Under the pieces are notes generated by a model that saw only the letters and a list, made by a program, of their open reading frames with translations, was not told the DNA's origin and did not search any database. A program made the position numbers and the translations under genes. 32,000 nucleotides of DNA from positions 900,001 to 932,000 of the forward strand of contig NC_014408.1 of the NCBI RefSeq assembly GCF_000145295.1. Direction: 5' to 3'. Positions 4,329-20,253 of the stretch are shown here, in pieces. This DNA is from Methanothermobacter marburgensis str. Marburg (GTDB lineage Archaea; Methanobacteriota; Methanobacteria; Methanobacteriales; Methanothermobacteraceae). Each line of letters begins with the position of its first letter. Within the stretch, counting starts at the first letter, position 1.

Positions 4329-5314
4329 GTAGATTGGTGTTGAATCACCATCATCAATTCATCACCCCCAGATGGGATATTATGTACAGCGTGAGGCTCA
4401 TAACGCCCGGGGAAAAGGATGAAATCCTGGCTGAACTCTCCAGACTCAGACTCTTTGAGAGGAAGGCCAGCCTCCATGGGGCCTGCGTCAAGCTCCTCAC
4501 AGATGACGTGTCATTCAAGGAGGAGTGGGAGGACAACTTCAGATTCATGAGCGAAGATGTGAGGCCTCATGCAAAGGTATTTGCTGTGTCAGATGGTGGT
4601 GACCTGGAGGTTCTCTACGAGGCAAATTCAAAGACAGTCATAATCAAAAACTGTGACTACTATGGCTGGGTTAAGAGCATAGCCCTTGCAGCGGTTGCCG
4701 ACTTCTTTGAGGAGTACCATTCAGAGCACCGCCGCTACTCGGTCCATGGTTCAGCCCTCGACCGTGAAGGGGCTGGACTTGCGATCATAGGGCCGCCGGG
4801 TACAGGTAAGACGACCCTCACCTACGGTCTGCTCCTAGATGGGGCCTACAGTTATGTTTCAGATGACTGGTTCTTCACCCGCCTACTTGAGAACGGGGTC
4901 CTCGTTTATGCATCTGAGAAGAACTCCTACATCCGGGACGATATAGGGATGGTGTGGAAGGAGTACTCCTCCCTCCTGGAATCTGTGAAACTGGATGCCA
5001 GATCCAGGGGGGTTGCAGATGTTGGGATGCTCTTCGGGGGGCGGATAAGGGAGTCCACCACACTCAAAAGGGTCGTTCTCCTTGAGAGAAACCCTGATAA
5101 CCCCCCAATGAGGAGGCTGGATCCAGAGGAGGGTCTGAAGTACCTGCTGGAAAATGACTTCTGCAACCCCCACCAGCTTGTAAGGGATGAGAGAAAGATG
5201 GGGCTCCGCAGGAGGTTCTTCAGTGAACTCCTGGGCAGGGTGGAACTCCATATACTCAACACCATTGAAACACCGGCCAGGAGCCTTGAAAGGCTGAAAA
5301 AACTTGACAGGTAA
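4325..5314 (+). CDS. Uncharacterised HprK-C/PEPCK-fold P-loop protein
   Basis: HGSALDREGAGLAIIGPPGTGKTTLTYGLLLDG...YVSDDW matches the HPr kinase C-terminal pattern (HG..v...G.GvLi.G.sG.GKs...L...g..lv.DD). ATG 4325 overlaps the aroB' stop (ATGA). An alternative ATG lies at 4382. Confidence 0.6.
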   Translation: MSRLVLNHHHQFITPRWDIMYSVRLITPGEKDEILAELSRLRLFERKASLHGACVKLLTDDVSFKEEWEDNFRFMSEDVRPHAKVFAVSDGGDLEVLYEANSKTVIIKNCDYYGWVKSIALAAVADFFEEYHSEHRRYSVHGSALDREGAGLAIIGPPGTGKTTLTYGLLLDGAYSYVSDDWFFTRLLENGVLVYASEKNSYIRDDIGMVWKEYSSLLESVKLDARSRGVADVGMLFGGRIRESTTLKRVVLLERNPDNPPMRRLDPEEGLKYLLENDFCNPHQLVRDERKMGLRRRFFSELLGRVELHILNTIETPARSLERLKKLDR

Positions 5315-5332
5315 TACACGGAGGATCATGAA

Positions 5333-5887
5333 ATGAAGGTCAGGGCCTTCCTTGCAGTTGATGTTGACGATGAATTAAGGGAAAGGGTGTGTGAGATACA
5401 GGATATCCTGAGGGGCGCCGATGCCCAGATAAAGTTCGTTGAACCTGAGAACCTCCACTTCACCCTGAAATTCTTCGGTGATGTGGGTGAGGGCAAACTG
5501 AGGAGGATAAGGGGGATAGTTGAGGAAACCCTGAAGGGTTATGAACCATTCGACCTTCACGTGATGGGGGCAGGTGTCTTCCCCAGCCCACGCTACATCC
5601 GGGTGGTGTGGCTTGGTGTTGAAAACCCGGGGGTATTCTCAGAGCTGCAGAGGAACCTGGACATGGAATTTGCCAGGATAGGATTCCGGAAGGAAAGGGA
5701 GTACGTGCCCCACCTGACCATCGGGCGGGTCAAGGGTCCGAGGAACCGTGAGAAACTTGCAGCCCTGATAGATGAGCTTGAGAATGTGGACGCCGGCACC
5801 CTCAGGGTTGACAGGGTCTCACTTAAAAGGAGTGATCTCACACCGGAGGGACCCGTCTACAGTGACCTTGAGGTCTTCAGAATCTGA
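5333..5887 (+). CDS. thpR: 2H-phosphoesterase: RNA 2',3'-cyclic phosphodiesterase / 2'-5' RNA ligase family
   Basis: It has two H-x-T-x motifs (HFTLKF and HLTIGR) at the expected spacing. It is 184 aa. Confidence 0.85.
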   Translation: MKVRAFLAVDVDDELRERVCEIQDILRGADAQIKFVEPENLHFTLKFFGDVGEGKLRRIRGIVEETLKGYEPFDLHVMGAGVFPSPRYIRVVWLGVENPGVFSELQRNLDMEFARIGFRKEREYVPHLTIGRVKGPRNREKLAALIDELENVDAGTLRVDRVSLKRSDLTPEGPVYSDLEVFRI

Positions 5888-5960
5888 TTAATTTTAATTG
5901 ATATGGTGGACATGCGACAGTGTGCACTGAGAGTATAAACGGATAACATGGTGAATAAAC

Positions 5961-7319
5961 ATGGACTACAGCGGGATACTTGAGAGTATAAAACCCGGAA
6001 GAGAAGAATATCAGCGGGTCATGGAATTATCAGAGAGCCTTGTTGAATGTATAAATGAACTCGCAGCGAGGATGGGGATCGATGCTGAGGCCTTCCTTGT
6101 GGGTTCAGTTGCCAAGGGGACCTGGCTCTCAGGCGGCGCCGACATCGACATATTCATCCACTTCCCCCTGGACACCCCCGAGGATGAACTGAAGGAGAAG
6201 GGCCTGAAACTCGGATACCTGTGCATAGAGATGTTCAGGGGAGAGGCCGAGGAGAGGTATGCGTCACACCCCTACGTTACAGGACACATAGATGGTTACG
6301 AGGTGGACTTCGTTCCCTGCTACAGGATATCCAATGCCTCAGAACTCAGATCCGCCGTTGACAGAACCATACTCCACACAGAGTATATCCAGAGGAACCT
6401 TAAGGGGGAGCAGATGGACGAGGTTCTTCTCCTCAAACAGTTCATGAAGTCAACAGGGACCTACGGATCCGAGTTCAGGGTTGGAGGGTTTGCAGGTTAC
6501 CTTGCAGAACTCCTTGTTCTCCACTACGGAAACTTCGAGGGGGTGCTTAAAGGCGCCCTCAGCTGGAGGCCCGGGTATATCATAGATCTCGAGGGTCATG
6601 GTACCTGTGGGGACTTCCAGGAGCCCCTCGTGGTGGTTGACCCTGTAGACAGGAACAGGAACGTTGCGGCGGCACTCACACTGCAGCGGATGGCTGAATT
6701 TGTAACTGCGGCCAGGAATTTCCTGAGGGACCCGAAACCCGAATACTTCAGGAAACCACATTACACCTCAGATCCCGGTGAAATACTTGAAACCATTGAA
6801 AAAAGGGGTTCAAAGGTCATCCTGGTATCCAGCGGGGTGCCTGATGTCCCGGCGGATGCCCTCTACCCCCAGCTCAGGAAGACCCTTGATTCCATCGTGA
6901 GGAACCTGGAGAATGAGGGATTCTCGGTTCTTGGGGCCGACTACTGGAGCGACGAATCAAGTGTCGCTGTCATGCTCATTGAAATGGAGGTCTGGGCGCT
7001 TCCATCCTACAGAAAGAGATACGGGCCCCCTGTCTGGTCCAGGCGGCACAGTGAGAGGTTCACAGAAAGGCATGAGAGGGTATGGGTTGAGGGCCCGAGG
7101 CTTGTTGTGGAATCCCCCAGGAGGGATAGAAACGCGGTTGATTACATTAAAAGGCTCCTATCAAAACCTGAAAGGCTCAAAATGGGAAAACACATACGCA
7201 AAGAACTGATAAATGGCTTCAGTGTTGATTTCCTTGAGAATACCCTTGGATCACTGGACCCTGAATTTCTTATGTTCCTTGACGCCTTCCTGAATCCCTG
7301 GAAGGCCATTAGAAGATGA
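5961..7319 (+). CDS. cca: CCA-adding enzyme (class I archaeal tRNA nucleotidyltransferase)
   Basis: It carries the class I nucleotidyltransferase signature GSVAKGTWLSGGADIDIF. At 452 aa it is typical of archaeal Cca. Confidence 0.9.
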   Translation: MDYSGILESIKPGREEYQRVMELSESLVECINELAARMGIDAEAFLVGSVAKGTWLSGGADIDIFIHFPLDTPEDELKEKGLKLGYLCIEMFRGEAEERYASHPYVTGHIDGYEVDFVPCYRISNASELRSAVDRTILHTEYIQRNLKGEQMDEVLLLKQFMKSTGTYGSEFRVGGFAGYLAELLVLHYGNFEGVLKGALSWRPGYIIDLEGHGTCGDFQEPLVVVDPVDRNRNVAAALTLQRMAEFVTAARNFLRDPKPEYFRKPHYTSDPGEILETIEKRGSKVILVSSGVPDVPADALYPQLRKTLDSIVRNLENEGFSVLGADYWSDESSVAVMLIEMEVWALPSYRKRYGPPVWSRRHSERFTERHERVWVEGPRLVVESPRRDRNAVDYIKRLLSKPERLKMGKHIRKELINGFSVDFLENTLGSLDPEFLMFLDAFLNPWKAIRR

Positions 7320-15087: not shown

Positions 15088-15975
15088 TCAGAAACTGTAG
15101 AGTTTGTTGAGGAGCTCAAGGGTCACGGACTCCATCTCCCTCTCATCCAGTTTCTGGAAGATTTCAACAGCCCCCCTGAAAGCTGATGCAACACCCTCAG
15201 GGTTGTTTTCTATGAATTCGAGGACCCCCATGAGGACCATTGCAACGGCAAGTCCCATGTCATTGTTTGTCTTTTTGAAAAGATCCTCGGCCTTCTTAAG
15301 GTACTTCCTTGACTCGCTGAAGTCCTCATTTTTAAGTGAATAAGCCCCCAGAAGCAGAAGCAATGACGCCTCTGTGGCTGTATCGCCAATATCCCTTGCA
15401 ATCTGGTAGGCCTCCCTTATCTGGGATATGGAGTCCTCATAGGACTGTGACTGGTACATTGTAAGTGATTCAACCCTTTCGACGAGTCTGTCCAGGAATG
15501 GCTCAATGGCACCGAGATCCACCTCTGCCATCTCAGCTTCAGCCTCCTCCTGGAGGCGGTTGAGGCTTGCTATATCTATGGCCTCCCTGATCTTTTCGAC
15601 TTCCTTGATCTTTTCCCTCAGATCCTTTCTGAGTGGTGAATTAACAGAGTTATAAATCCGGAGCGCCTCCTTAAAGTACTCCATTGCAGTTTTGATTTTT
15701 CTATCACTGAGGTAGACGTCACCCATGGAGTCAAGGGCAAAAGCCATGAGCTCCTCGTCATTCATGTCAGAGGCCACCTTGTAGGCCCTTTCAAGGTAAT
15801 CAAGTGCCTCACGGGTATCGCCCTCATCAGCATAAAAGGTGGCTATCCTTATGAGGGTGTCAAATTCCTCCTCAAGAAGTTCCTCAAGTTTGCGCAGGTA
15901 CTTCTCCAGTGATTCACCGCCCTCATCCCCCTTGAGAAAATCAAATATGCTCAGAATAATTAATATCATCTTCAC
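15088..15975 (-). CDS. TPR-repeat protein
   Basis: It has repeated 34-residue A/Y/L-patterned helical pairs (e.g. EALDYLERAYKVA, AMEYFKEALRIY, SRKYLKKAEDLF). A short hydrophobic N-terminus reads MILIILSIFDFL. The start is GTG 15975 or ATG 15969. Confidence 0.7.
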   Translation of the reverse strand: MKMILIILSIFDFLKGDEGGESLEKYLRKLEELLEEEFDTLIRIATFYADEGDTREALDYLERAYKVASDMNDEELMAFALDSMGDVYLSDRKIKTAMEYFKEALRIYNSVNSPLRKDLREKIKEVEKIREAIDIASLNRLQEEAEAEMAEVDLGAIEPFLDRLVERVESLTMYQSQSYEDSISQIREAYQIARDIGDTATEASLLLLLGAYSLKNEDFSESRKYLKKAEDLFKKTNNDMGLAVAMVLMGVLEFIENNPEGVASAFRGAVEIFQKLDEREMESVTLELLNKLYSF

Positions 15976-16118: not shown

Positions 16119-16805
16119 TCAGCCCACCAGAAGGCCCTGTTCACCTATCCTGTAGGGCGCCTCCCTGGTCCCTGAGGGGGTGCTGGAAGATATCATTGAG
16201 CCATCCATGCGGATATGCACATCGAAAAGTTCAGGGACCCCCTTCTCTATTTCCGGATCCGCAACCCCCTCTGTGTATGCCACCAGTGCTATTCCATTGG
16301 CCTCCCTCACACGGTTATTGTAGGCCTTGAGCACCCTCAGCACAAGCCTTGGGGGGTTGAATGCCAGGAGAATGGATGCGGAGTCAAAGGCTGAAAGAAA
16401 TATTCCAGATTCCTGGTAGAGGCTTCTTGTGGCTATACCAACCTTGACCATGAGGTCTGTGGTGTTCTGAAGGGCTGAATACCTTATGTTTCCTGAATCC
16501 TGGGGTTTAGCACCCCCAAGTCCGGTTGGAAGATCGATTACATGAAGCTTATCACTGAATGTCTGGATGAACCAGTTAAAGGCCATCGTGTTCCTCTGCA
16601 GGTCCCTGTAGCCGTATTCCGCCGCTATGAAAAGGCATGGGTTTCCGGCCTGGAGTCCTCTGTAGATGAACTCGGTTGCAAGTACGGATTTACCTGCCTT
16701 GGGGGGCCCCGTGACCAGCATGACTGAACCAGGCTCCAGTTCACCCAGGATATCATCAAGTCCAGCTATACCGGTGGTGTAGTTCTCACTCATGATATCC
16801 CTCAT
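16119..16805 (-). CDS. KaiC/RecA-superfamily ATPase (single-domain KaiC-like), paralog 3
   Basis: Features are GIAGLDDIL, Walker A GPPKAGKS and a Walker B-like SAFDSAS. It ends like other KaiC-like proteins (APYRIGEQGL). Its ATG overlaps the upstream stop (ATGA). Confidence 0.8.
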   Translation of the reverse strand: MRDIMSENYTTGIAGLDDILGELEPGSVMLVTGPPKAGKSVLATEFIYRGLQAGNPCLFIAAEYGYRDLQRNTMAFNWFIQTFSDKLHVIDLPTGLGGAKPQDSGNIRYSALQNTTDLMVKVGIATRSLYQESGIFLSAFDSASILLAFNPPRLVLRVLKAYNNRVREANGIALVAYTEGVADPEIEKGVPELFDVHIRMDGSMISSSTPSGTREAPYRIGEQGLLVG

Positions 16806-17497
16806 GGGTTGACCTTAAGGCCCTTATCGTCTATGGTGTAGGGGGCGCTGGCCCTTCCGACCCCTATCATGGCCTCAACTGTAAGTTCAGATCCATCGAG
16901 GTGTATTATGTTATCCACAACTGCCTTGAGCATGGTCTCAACCTTGGGGTCTGCTGATCCCTCGGTGTAGGTGACAATGGCGGTTCCACCGGCGTCCTTG
17001 ATCCTTATTATGTATGCTGTGAGGACTCGGACTATCAGCAGCTCATCATTGAATGCCATTAGCGTTGTGAGGGAGTCCAGGACAGACCTGAACATGCTGT
17101 AGCCTGCAGTTATGTTCCTTATGGCAACCCCCAGCTTCACCATTATATCGGTGGGGTTATGCACAGATGATGAGAGGTAGGTGTTGCCAGCATCAGATGC
17201 CGGCCCTGAGATGCTTGATATCGCGTCTATCACATATAGAAGTTCATTCTCCATGTAGCTCTCAGCATCCATACCAAGAACCTGCATGTTCCTCTTGAGG
17301 TCCGCCAGACCATAGTCTGTGGATATGTAGAGACAGGGTTCACCCCTTTCAGCACCCCCCGCCGTGAAACCATAACTGAATATGGATTTACCAACCTTCG
17401 GGGGCCCATAGACAAGTGTAACAGTATTTTCAGGGATCGCCCCTCCACCAATGAGTTCATCAAGACCCCTTATTCCTGAGGGAATTCTGACAATCAT
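16802..17497 (-). CDS. KaiC/RecA-superfamily ATPase (single-domain KaiC-like), paralog 2
   Basis: Features are GIRGLDELIGGGAIPENTVTLVYGPPKVGKS (Walker A), Walker B-like VLDSLT and a C-terminal APYTIDDKGL. Its ATG abuts the upstream TAA with no spacer. Confidence 0.8.
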   Translation of the reverse strand: MIVRIPSGIRGLDELIGGGAIPENTVTLVYGPPKVGKSIFSYGFTAGGAERGEPCLYISTDYGLADLKRNMQVLGMDAESYMENELLYVIDAISSISGPASDAGNTYLSSSVHNPTDIMVKLGVAIRNITAGYSMFRSVLDSLTTLMAFNDELLIVRVLTAYIIRIKDAGGTAIVTYTEGSADPKVETMLKAVVDNIIHLDGSELTVEAMIGVGRASAPYTIDDKGLKVNP

Positions 17498-18679
17498 TTA
17501 ACCACCATAGAGAAGTCCGAGGAGGGTTTCAAGTGCTTCATTCACTCCCCATCCCTCTTTAAGTGAAACAGGTATTATGGGGACATCACCTCCAAGCTTC
17601 ATCCTTGTTCTTATCTCATCAGGTGAGAGCGCGCCTGGAAGGTCCTGTTTATTGGCAACCACAACCTTAGGTATCGCCTCTGCCCTTGTCTTTCTTATCA
17701 TCTCCTTGGCCCTTGCGAAGGTTTCAGGTGCGGTTGAGTCCACCAGTATGAATGCCCCTACAGCCTCCCTTGAGAGGACATCCAGTATGAGGTCGAATCT
17801 CTCCTGTCCCGGTGTACCGAAGATATCCGCCATGAACCCCTTATACTCGAGGTGACCTATGTCCATTGCAATGGTTGTTGGGAACGCCGAGAGGGCCTTT
17901 CTATCAACCGAAACCGCCTTTGTGGATATTGACTTTACGAATGTGGATTTCCCTGAATTGTAGGGACCAGTCACCAGTATCTTGGGCACATAGACCTTAA
18001 CGCCACCGGGCTGTACAACAAAGAAGAGCACCATGGTATCAGGTGGACTGGACCAGTCAGAATGGGCAACCATGAACCCCTGCCCTATTATGACCCTCTC
18101 CTCAATGGTCCGCAGGTCAACGACACAGTCCATCAGTGATCTCAGTTTATCCATAAGCTCCCTTTCATAGTCCCACTCAGTGAAGAGGTAGACAATGTTG
18201 ACATCAAGTTCAGAGGCCCTCCTGTTCCATGTCTCTACAATTTCAAGGGTGTCACCGTTCCCCAGGTAATCTATTATTACAGAGAGACAGTTTATTACTC
18301 CCACACCGCCTGGAATATCCTCTATTGCACTCAGAACTGTTTCCTTTATCTCTGAGTAATCACTGACGGTGTAACGCTCCTCTGATGGCATTCCAAGGAA
18401 GGGTGAACTTCCATCAACAAAGAACATGTCCCCATTCTCAATGCGGGGCTCGATGTCCCAGCCATAGGACCTGAATTCATATATTATGCTCTCAGGTTCC
18501 TCAACGTTGGTGAATATAAACCCCTTCTCGCCCTCACCAAGTCGTCCGTTGAGCATCTGGTAACCGAATGCCTCATAGTCCACTCCGGGGGATGCCGAGA
18601 ACATCACAGAAGCCCCCTCCCTCACTCCACCGCCCAGGAGGTCGTCGAGTTTCGGGATGTAAGTCCTCTTCATGTTCAC
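17498..18679 (-). CDS. Fusion protein: P-loop-degenerate KaiC-like domain (aa 1-~228) + small MglA/Arf-like GTPase (aa ~232-393)
   Basis: The N-terminal half aligns by eye to the two downstream KaiC-like proteins ([18 protein letters not shown]...), but the Walker A position reads SASPGVDYE. The C-terminal half has G1 [10 protein letters not shown]3 [10 protein letters not shown]4 ANKQD and G5-like VSLK. The start is GTG 18679 or ATG 18673. Confidence 0.8.
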
Positions 18680-19168: not shown

Positions 19169-19735
19169 TTAAGGAGGAAGCCATACCGCCTCAGATGTTG
19201 TGAAAACGTAGTGATCTGAAAGGGCAGGGTTGTGGTAGGTGCCGGTCAGGTTCTCTGTCCTGAAGGTCCGTGAGATGGATCTCCTCATGCAGAAGTTCAC
19301 CCTGTCAGAGAGGGACTCCCTCAGGGAAGACTCCATAGGTGGGCCAGAGAGCCATGCCCTCAGACGGAACTTCCTCCGCCCGTATGTGCTGTTGTAGCCC
19401 TCATCAATCAGCTCAACCCTGAGAACCCTGACATCAGACGGCTGCAGGAGGACTGGTTTCTGATTCTGGTACTCCTCAAAGGTAACAGCAGGGTAGACTG
19501 CAAGGGTGTCAGTCGTAACCCCCTCCAGGGCCCCTGTTTTTGCAGCCGAATGGGCCGCCATGAGTTCAAGCTGCATTCCAGCCTGAACCGCTATGAGTGT
19601 GGCAATGAGGAGCCCGGCACCTGTAAGTAGCAGGTACTCAATGGGTACCTGCCCTCCGGTGCAGCCATAGATATGACCTGGCCTCAAATTTGTCACAGAT
19701 GAAGCCCAGGGACTCCTAGATACATCCAACCTCAA
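19169..19735 (-). CDS. Class III signal peptide (type IV pilin-like) protein
   Basis: It contains ...GCTGG|QVPIEYLLLTGAGLLIATLIAV, that is Gly, then Gln at +1, Glu at +5 and a hydrophobic helix. This is the archaeal prepilin-peptidase substrate pattern. Possible starts are TTG 19735 (overlapping the upstream stop), GTG 19696 or TTG 19687. Confidence 0.55.
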   Translation of the reverse strand: MRLDVSRSPWASSVTNLRPGHIYGCTGGQVPIEYLLLTGAGLLIATLIAVQAGMQLELMAAHSAAKTGALEGVTTDTLAVYPAVTFEEYQNQKPVLLQPSDVRVLRVELIDEGYNSTYGRRKFRLRAWLSGPPMESSLRESLSDRVNFCMRRSISRTFRTENLTGTYHNPALSDHYVFTTSEAVWLPP

Positions 19736-20175
19736 AGTCTCACCTCCGAGACCATGACAAGGGTCCTGTTATTCCTGCAGGTGTTCCTTATTGAGTATTT
19801 CCTGCCTGCCTCAAGGTTAATTGATGCAGGGGTACCTTTCGAGTCCACTATAAGAACATTGGACATATTTGAGAATCCCCTGTAACCATCCGCCCAGCCG
19901 TAGACTCCTGTTGAGTTGATCCTCAGCCTGTAAGCTGATGTGTGGTTGAGACGGGGAGGGAGCTCAACAACAACTTCACGGCCCGGACCCCCTGCAACTG
20001 CAAGGTCAACGGCACATGCCACATCATCCATGAGTATGCGAAGTTCAAGAAGTCCCTCCTCATGGTTAACACCATCAATCCTTGAACCTGCAATGGCAAC
20101 CATGGTGGATAAAAGCAGAACCATGAAAAAGGTTGATGTTACAGCGTCAGCTGCCAGAACACCATGTTTATCCAT
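19732..20175 (-). CDS. Putative class III signal peptide (pilin-like) protein
   Basis: From ATG 20175 it reads MDKHG|VLAADAVTSTFFMVLLLSTMVAIAG. This gives a short basic leader, Gly, an acidic residue at +5 and a hydrophobic helix. A TTTATATA box ends 23 nt upstream, which suggests a leaderless mRNA. Confidence 0.45.
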   Translation of the reverse strand: MDKHGVLAADAVTSTFFMVLLLSTMVAIAGSRIDGVNHEEGLLELRILMDDVACAVDLAVAGGPGREVVVELPPRLNHTSAYRLRINSTGVYGWADGYRGFSNMSNVLIVDSKGTPASINLEAGRKYSIRNTCRNNRTLVMVSEVRL

Positions 20176-20197
20176 GAGGATAATTAATAAATTTTTG

Positions 20198-20205
20198 TAT
20201 ATAAA
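20198..20205. promoter_or_regulatory. Shared, possibly bidirectional, TATA element between divergent genes
   Basis: The minus strand reads an exact TTTATATA 23 nt before ATG 20175. The plus strand reads TATATAAA 31-49 nt before ATG 20236/20254. Confidence 0.5.
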
Positions 20206-20253
20206 TATTACTAACTGGTGTATAGATATAGTTTGATGCACATAAACACTTAC

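Follow-up and report, generated by a model that had tools for sequence, protein, structure and literature searches.

A stretch of 32,000 nucleotides (nt) from Methanothermobacter marburgensis str. Marburg (contig NC_014408.1, positions 900,001 to 932,000), referred to here as the window, contains a head-to-tail series of five minus-strand genes. They encode a Roadblock/LC7 protein, a fusion of a KaiC-like domain (K1) to a small GTPase, two single-domain KaiC-like proteins (K2 and K3), and a tetratricopeptide repeat (TPR) protein. Our best explanation, to which we assign a probability of about 0.55, is that the cluster encodes an MglA/MglB-type switch in which K1 is a pseudo-ATPase adaptor that docks the GTPase onto the KaiC-like ATPases K2 and K3. 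K1 is likely to be an adaptor and not an enzyme, because its catalytic residues have been lost while its fold and its conserved surface elements remain. The anatomy of the proteins, the states of their motifs, the conservation of those motifs, and the synteny of the genes were observed directly. We infer the direction of signaling, the output, and the physical association of K1, K2, and K3, the last from synteny and gene coupling.

The K1 domain and its paralogs K2 and K3

The fusion of K1 to the GTPase is genuine, as an earlier reading made from the DNA letters alone (the sequence-only reading) had held. Proteins of about 391 amino acids (aa) with this architecture occur in over 100 protein clusters of Methanobacteriales and recur in remote archaeal lineages, and a single β-strand crosses the junction in the AlphaFold model. 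This strand (residues 226 to 237) joins the last strand of K1 to strand 1 of the G domain. The model, for which 61 sequences served as input, has a predicted local distance difference test score (pLDDT) of 89.5 and a predicted template modeling score (pTM) of 0.81. The nearest database proteins are from Methanothermobacter, at 95 to 97% identity, and are labeled only "GTP-binding protein" or "ATPase domain-containing protein." Distant fused relatives, at 28 to 41% identity, are found in ANME-2/Methanosarcinales, Altiarchaeota, and Thermoplasmata. The fusion is ancient.

The model indicates that K1 keeps the whole KaiC/RecA fold. Its best Foldseek match was PH0284 (2dr3), with a target TM-score of 0.85 to 0.87 and a root mean square deviation of 2.2 to 2.6, and the K1 family profile matched KaiC with an E value of 6e-36. 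Foldseek gave no residue equivalences, and we therefore mapped the motifs with phmmer, hmmsearch, hhalign, and MAFFT, all of which were concordant. The same register was obtained from four independent alignments: MAFFT on the three paralogs, phmmer against solved structures, family profiles against solved structures, and an hhalign comparison of the K1 and K2 families (probability, 99.6%). The hhalign alignment paired K1 residues Y35, E36, V59, and N130 with K2 residues K37, S38, D61, and D141, respectively, and aligning the K1 profile with KaiC, PH0284, and PH0186 gave the identical register. Between the anchors G53 and P62 the alignment is gapless (G53-FIFTNVEE-P62 in K1 versus G-VFVTFEES-P in KaiC). 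Because the anchors are equally spaced, V59 corresponds to the first catalytic Glu of KaiC (the E77 type), E60 to E78, and E61 to position 79. The KaiC column of E77, in the CI domain, is also the column of RecA E96, and its counterpart in CII, E318, has been named "the catalytic glutamate" (PMC9171630). Conservation was counted in 119 Methanobacteriales orthologs of the fusion, 119 K2 sequences, 11 K3 sequences, and 33 distant fused representatives.

In this register, K1 appears to be catalytically dead: it retains neither the Lys nor the Ser/Thr of Walker A, nor the Asp of Walker B, nor the catalytic Glu. The P-loop is noncanonical, as had been claimed. None of the 119 orthologs has Lys at the Walker Lys column or Ser/Thr at the next one, and none of the 33 distant relatives has GK[ST]. 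The Walker Lys column holds Cys in 101 orthologs, Tyr in 12, Ser in 4, and Phe in 1, and the Ser/Thr column holds Glu in 112 and Asp in 7. The loop consensus, PGV[DE][CY]EAFGYQ, is almost invariant among these orthologs. The window version, SASPGVDYE, lies where the sequence-only reading had found it, but the range then given (nt 18572 to 18601) was one codon too long. At the Walker B position, N130 replaces the Asp in 119/119 orthologs.

The catalytic column itself is occupied by V59, or by Ile, in all 119 orthologs. The acidic pair of K1, in TNVEEPE, had been placed at the position of the catalytic glutamate, but that placement was off by one. E60 is found in only 5/119 orthologs (the remainder have Ala, Thr, or Ser), while E61 is kept in 112/119. 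In the 33 distant fused relatives, the region of the two Glu residues reads NNKKP, SKSSP, GDKPP, and so on, with no conserved acid. Because E60 is rare and the distant relatives have no conserved acid here, the pair appears to be a local lineage feature and not a retained catalytic dyad.

We also considered a lysine elsewhere in K1 as a substitute. Several distant K1 sequences (P0284, P0288, P0294, and P0298, among others) carry a GGIPxGK[ST] look-alike before strand 1, at about position 15, where the window protein has GGGVREGAS. We rejected this candidate: it is the conserved GGhPxGR pre-strand motif with Arg changed to Lys, and it does not lie at the P-loop position.

K1 could nevertheless bind a nucleotide or another phosphorylated ligand through a remodeled loop and, as a sensor, gate the GTPase to which it is fused. 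The strong purifying selection on the loop, in which P31, G32, V33, E36, F38, G39, Y40, and Q41 are nearly invariant, would agree with such a role, as would the strand-loop-helix topology retained in the AlphaFold model and the Walker B Asp kept by many distant family members. However, phosphates would meet repulsion from acidic side chains in the Lys and Ser/Thr columns, the Walker B Asn is universal in the Methanobacteriales orthologs, and conservation of the loop sequence does not extend to the wider family. We consider a noncanonical binder quite improbable. A further block of K1, containing W209 and P212, is nearly invariant, and it therefore indicates selection for a noncatalytic function.

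K2 and K3 have kept what K1 has lost. Their Walker A motifs, GPPKVGKS and GPPKAGKS, were found as claimed. In the K2 family, G36 and K37 are present in 119/119 sequences, Ser/Thr38 in 118/119, and D141 in 112/119, and the catalytic column holds Asp (D61) in 111/119, Asn in 5, and Glu in 3. All 11 K3 sequences have GK[ST] and D141, with Glu (6) or Asp (5) at the catalytic column. Loci recovered later showed the same pattern of K2 and K3 motifs. By these alignments, each of the two proteins is predicted to have a self-contained nucleotide site, made up of GK[ST], a Walker B Asp, and an Asp or Glu at the RecA E96/KaiC E77 column.

The sequence-only reading had taken ISTDYG of K2 and IAAEYG of K3 to lack the catalytic acid and had proposed that the P-loop and the catalytic acids are split between subunits. 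It envisaged an obligate K1/K2/K3 hetero-oligomer, with composite sites formed by the P-loop of K2 or K3 and the acidic pair of K1. The three genes are tightly linked, the Walker A motif is missing from K1 and present in K2 and K3, and the window K1 does have two adjacent Glu residues beside the catalytic column. However, D61 of K2 and E63 of K3 themselves align to RecA E96 and to the first KaiC Glu, so that in each of the two proteins a single chain carries Walker A, Walker B, and the catalytic acid, and the split is refuted. K1 has Val at this column, with E60 rare and no acid conserved in the distant relatives. Moreover, it is established that the catalytic Glu of RecA-fold ATPases lies in cis with its own P-loop. 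Structures of RecA and KaiC show that a single protomer supplies the Walker A motif, the Walker B motif, and the catalytic Glu of a given site, and the neighbor provides basic fingers. Since the catalytic Glu acts in cis, a Glu of K1 could not complement the P-loop of K2; it would sit beside the dead P-loop of K1 itself. Finally, active partners number just one in ANME-2 loci and are absent from some loci. The composite-site model is thus extremely improbable, and a false lead, that of an active site split between subunits, can be set aside. What stands of the earlier proposal is that K1 is a pseudo-ATPase tied covalently to a GTPase; its degeneration is not complementary to that of K2 and K3.

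We also looked at whether K1 might give a Lys or Arg finger to K2 or K3. The column of KaiC K224 holds Lys or Arg in 30 of the 39 sequences of a broad alignment of the fused family. Within Methanobacteriales K1 it is variable (Ser, His, Gly, Cys, Thr, or Arg), and the window protein has His. K2 has Lys there in 66/119 sequences and Ile in the window. No conservation is seen at the R226 column.

The GTPase domain, its neighbors, and the proposed switch

The MglA family is defined by the loss of the G3 Asp (Wuichet and Sogaard-Andersen, PMC4316618). Its groups 2 to 5 share GTPGQ, with Thr replacing the intrinsic Arg in G2, and group 4 is found almost entirely in methanogenic Euryarchaeota (PMC4316618). 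The window GTPase has the features of groups 2 to 5: GTPGQ without the Asp, and Thr in G2, where PTT occupies residues 267 to 269. Residues G288, T289, P290, G291, and Q292 are invariant or nearly so in 61 sequences. As in MglA systems, a Roadblock/LC7 gene adjoins the GTPase gene. A single-domain protein of 150 to 240 aa would be expected for the MglA family, but the fusion has 391 to 393 aa with K1 at its N terminus. The census of prokaryotic small GTPases dropped all sequences longer than 240 aa (PMC4316618), and the fusion was left outside it for this reason. In the Protein Data Bank, the solved proteins nearest by sequence to the GTPase domain are Arf, Arl, and Rab. Foldseek returned Arl6, Arl1, Arf1, and MglA (6izw at rank 7, with an E value of 5e-12; also 3t1o and 3t1t), all of them comparable, which is consistent with the reported closeness of archaeal MglA to the Arf group.

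To describe the genomic context, we gathered 90 fusion loci from contig searches and one metagenome scan and scored their open reading frames (ORFs) with hidden Markov models (HMMs) built from our own alignments. Neighbors were counted in 49 loci, those flanked on both sides by 1.5 kb or more of sequence. A Roadblock gene adjoins the fusion in 48 of them. At least one KaiC-like neighbor is present in 44/49 loci and at least two in 22/49, and a KaiC-like neighbor with a canonical GK[ST] is found in 22/49. The invariant core is the pseudo-KaiC-MglA fusion plus Roadblock, and the usual addition is at least one KaiC-like protein.

In the switch that we propose, K1 would dock the GTPase onto a K2/K3 assembly through RecA-fold subunit interfaces. 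The adjacent Roadblock protein, acting as a GTPase-activating protein or a guanine nucleotide exchange factor, would set the GTP/GDP state of the fused GTPase, and this state would be coupled to the ATP-bound or ATP-hydrolysis state of K2 and K3. The TPR protein may act as an effector or a scaffold.

Several observations weigh against this proposal. Five of the 49 loci (L009, L019, L020, L034, and L044) have no KaiC-like neighbor within 2.5 kb of the fusion. Unfused K1-type dead domains also exist. The sequence-only reading had asked whether such domains always occur with the GTPase fusion, and they do not: complete stand-alone genes are present at L091 (548 to 1246), L092 (499 to 1227), and L093 (227 to 1012 and 1165 to 1953), with scores of 190 to 237 bits against the K1 HMM. 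The two genes of L093 are in tandem and adjoin MCP and CheW genes. The idea of an obligate hetero-oligomer is weakened by both the loci without a KaiC-like neighbor and the stand-alone domains. K2 has Asp, not Glu, at the catalytic column, and it may bind ATP yet hardly hydrolyze it; moreover, it has no clear equivalent of the KaiC K224/R226 fingers. On the GTPase side, bacterial MglA is absent from the best 60 Protein Data Bank sequence matches of the domain.

The E96D substitution in RecA slows hydrolysis strongly. Because the conserved Asp of K2 corresponds to this substitution, K2 may by analogy act as a switch that binds ATP or may hydrolyze ATP very slowly. K3 of the Methanothermobacter window retains Glu (E63) at the same column.

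The loci without KaiC-like neighbors also bear on an alternative, in which K1 self-associates. A K1 homo-oligomer, either a ring or a dimer, would cluster the GTPases with Roadblock, and K2 and K3 would form separate assemblies in the same pathway. This arrangement would fit the invariant core of fusion and Roadblock (48/49), beside which there are between zero and three KaiC-like neighbors, often highly divergent ones. It would also fit the five loci that lack such a neighbor, of which L009 is from Altiarchaeota, and single-domain KaiC-like proteins such as PH0284 crystallize with six chains per entry. However, 44 of the 49 loci keep at least one KaiC-like gene beside the fusion, and in Methanobacteriales and ANME-2 the partner gene abuts or overlaps the fusion gene. 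We regard self-association as possible but rather unlikely.

A more elaborate version of the adaptor proposal is a hybrid machine using two nucleotides, GTP and ATP, in which the pseudo-KaiC adaptor puts an MglA-type GTPase into a K2/K3 hetero-oligomer. The Roadblock-controlled state of the GTPase would gate a slow ATPase or autokinase of the KaiC-like type, or gating would run the opposite way, and the output, at the cell surface or in polarity, would pass through the TPR protein and the neighboring pilin-like proteins. We think that this version is unlikely. If it is true, archaea would have an equivalent of the polarity module that MglA and MglB form in Myxococcus, connected to KaiC-type hubs.

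The number of partners varies among lineages. ANME-2 loci have a single K2-type partner, directly after the fusion and 50% identical to K2, and K2 and K3 of the window are 39% identical to each other (E value of 2e-49). For these reasons, K3 looks like a duplication of the K2-type partner within Methanobacteriales, as judged from sequence identity.

Other loci depart from the arrangement in the window. The fusions of L018, L019, and L020, each with Roadblock upstream and no K2 or K3 within 5 kb, share 62% identity with the window protein; they may represent a second copy, paralogous to the first, or a form independent of K2 and K3. The L020 fusion lies at 5001 to 6179, and a PAS protein is also encoded nearby. 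The KaiC-like neighbors of distant loci have odd P-loops, GPPMSGKE[TA], GPPGVGKFE, and GLPGTMKS[TS], in which the Lys is kept and the Mg-binding Ser/Thr or a Gly is changed. These occur in L030 to L032, L037 to L040, L043, and L068, where the gene is just upstream of the fusion, and in L079 to L088. In some distant loci the Roadblock gene is present as a tandem pair.

A fourth, divergent KaiC-like gene lies upstream of Roadblock in some Methanobacterium loci (L004, 6845 to 7501; L013, 2067 to 2756). It has a degenerate P-loop, GDLFSGKD, and STNE in the catalytic region, and the L004 copy was assigned to DUF7090 and DUF7504. In L007, from a distant genome, a T2SSE/type IV pilus-type ATPase gene and a KaiC-like gene (1 to 320 and 806 to 1645) lie about 5 kb from the fusion, with several small genes without Pfam matches in between. 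KaiC-like and Roadblock genes have been reported to be linked to archaeal type IV pilus loci (PMC4858521), and L007 fits that report.

Layout of the gene cluster

The genes of the cluster are closely packed. The Roadblock stop codon overlaps the start of the fusion gene, the K2 ATG immediately follows the fusion TAA (TAAATG), and the K2 and K3 genes overlap via ATGA. These three junctions suggest translational coupling. The GTG start listed for the fusion, at 18679, is probably wrong. The homologs of 391 aa begin with MKRTY, and the ATG at 18673 is preceded by AGGGAG at about 8 nt; both match a start at 18673, which would give a protein of 391 aa. The positions of the genes, domains, and motifs are collected in Table 1.

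Table 1. Positions in the window of the genes, domains, and motifs discussed in the text
Feature	Positions	Strand	Assignment or remark
Roadblock/LC7 protein (MglB-like), 126 aa	18676..19056	-	PF03259, E value 2e-23
K1-GTPase fusion, 393 aa as listed	17498..18679	-	Pfam KaiC plus Arf/Ras
K1 KaiC/RecA-fold domain, residues 1-231	17987..18679	-	PF06745 at residues 5-231, E value 7e-16
K1 degenerate P-loop, SASPGVDYE	18572..18598	-	Y35 at Walker Lys column, E36 at Ser/Thr column
K1 TNVEEPE	18491..18511	-	V59 at principal catalytic Glu column; E60 = KaiC E78; E61 = position 79
K1 degenerate Walker B, GVINCLS	18281..18301	-	N130 opposite K2 D141 (hhalign)
MglA-family/Arf-like small GTPase domain, residues 232-393	17498..17986	-	Arf/Ras at residues 233-388; TIGR00231, E value 6e-15
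GTPase G1, GPYNSGKS	17945-17968	-	
GTPase G2, FPTTIAMD	17861-17884	-	
GTPase G3, GTPGQ	17804-17818	-	
GTPase G4, NKQD	17642-17653	-	
K2 single-domain KaiC-like protein, 231 aa	16802..17497	-	PF06745, E value 3e-32
K2 Walker A, GPPKVGKS	17384-17407	-	
K2 ISTDYG	17309-17326	-	D61
K2 Walker B, RSVLDSLT	17066-17089	-	
K3 single-domain KaiC-like protein, 228 aa, K2 paralog	16119..16805	-	PF06745, E value 5e-18
K3 Walker A, GPPKAGKS	16686-16709	-	
K3 IAAEYG	16611-16628	-	E63
K3 Walker B, LSAFDSAS	16374-16397	-	
TPR repeat protein, last gene of the cluster	15088..15975	-	TPR_12, E value 1e-18
Two small ORFs upstream of Roadblock	19169-19735, 19732-20241	-	No Pfam matches

The gene for the TPR protein, a possible candidate effector or scaffold, is found in the same place in loci L004 and L006 and not in L005. 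SgmX, an effector of Myxococcus MglA, is a TPR protein.

Two small ORFs lie directly upstream of Roadblock. One of them carries GGQVPIEYLLLTGAGLLIATLIAV, which resembles an archaeal class III (type IV pilin-like) signal peptide. A PF04021 match of an upstream ORF is weak, with an E value of 0.14 in the window and 0.79 in the L006 ortholog. Two small genes occupy the corresponding place in L004, L006, and L008, and one of those in L008 was assigned to PF27343 (MJ0207). From their sequences, the two ORFs are possible candidates for class III signal (pilin-like) proteins, with uncertain membership in the system.

Comparison with known systems

Each component of the cluster belongs to a known family, and a pseudoenzyme paralog beside active ones is a known theme; the architecture itself is widespread in archaea and carries only generic annotation, assigned automatically. 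We found no description of a fusion between a dead KaiC-like domain and an MglA-type GTPase in the searchable literature, which did not cover Makarova et al. 2017. KaiC-like ATPases and MglA/Roadblock modules have both been proposed as major archaeal signaling devices and are largely uncharacterized; Makarova et al. 2017 reportedly proposed that the KaiC-like family acts as archaeal signaling hubs. The fusion is a covalent link between the two systems that is conserved in Methanobacteriales, ANME-2, Altiarchaeota, and Thermoplasmata. Because this link runs through a long-dead domain, it suggests that the two systems work as one unit. The cluster also offers a testable entry point, a set of four small, soluble proteins encoded by a laboratory-culturable thermophile.

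The closest likeness of K1, K2, and K3 is to the single-domain archaeal KaiC-like ATPases (Pyrococcus PH0284, 2dr3; PH0186, 2zts; Sulfolobus SSO2452, 2w0m), with which all three share the fold of about 230 aa and the family motifs near strand 1, GIPxLDxxLGGG. In K2 and K3 the likeness extends to Walker A, Walker B, and an acid at the catalytic position. K2 differs from them by Asp in place of Glu, and both K2 and K3 differ by Tyr in place of the second Glu and by a shorter form of the hairpin that in KaiC bears K224 and R226. K1 differs in having lost all three catalytic motifs and in being fused to a GTPase.

Cyanobacterial KaiC has an ATPase domain homologous to K1, K2, and K3. However, it consists of two tandem domains with EE pairs and phosphosites, whereas the proteins of the window are single-domain KaiC-like units with no KaiA or KaiB. 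Assignment of the window proteins to clock KaiC fails, with scores of 28 to 76 bits for NF006799 and TIGR02655 against cutoffs of 408 and 546. ArlH (FlaH) is likewise a single-domain KaiC-like protein, a nucleotide-dependent subunit for regulation or assembly and not a motor, and it has weak profile similarity to the window proteins. They are not ArlH: their scores against its equivalog model are 20 to 45 bits, the cutoff is 215, and there are no archaellum genes in the window.

Pseudo-ATPase subunits are known from hetero-oligomers of P-loop proteins, as in Rad55-Rad57 (Rad51 paralogs) and the F1 α subunit. Like K1, these proteins keep their fold and interfaces, have lost catalysis, and are encoded along with active paralogs. 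K1 differs from them by its added signaling GTPase, and its heteroassembly is predicted from the arrangement of the genes.

The GTPase half of the system resembles MglA/MglB of Myxococcus and Thermus and the actinobacterial conservon CvnA-D in that a small GTPase, here with the MglA-type G3 motif GTPGQ and with TT in G2, is encoded next to a Roadblock/LC7 protein. In the cluster described here, however, the GTPase is archaeal (group 4 like), is fused to a pseudo-KaiC domain, and has neither the bacterial insertion nor the intrinsic Arg finger. KaiC-like and TPR partners stand in the place of RomR/RomX or a histidine kinase.

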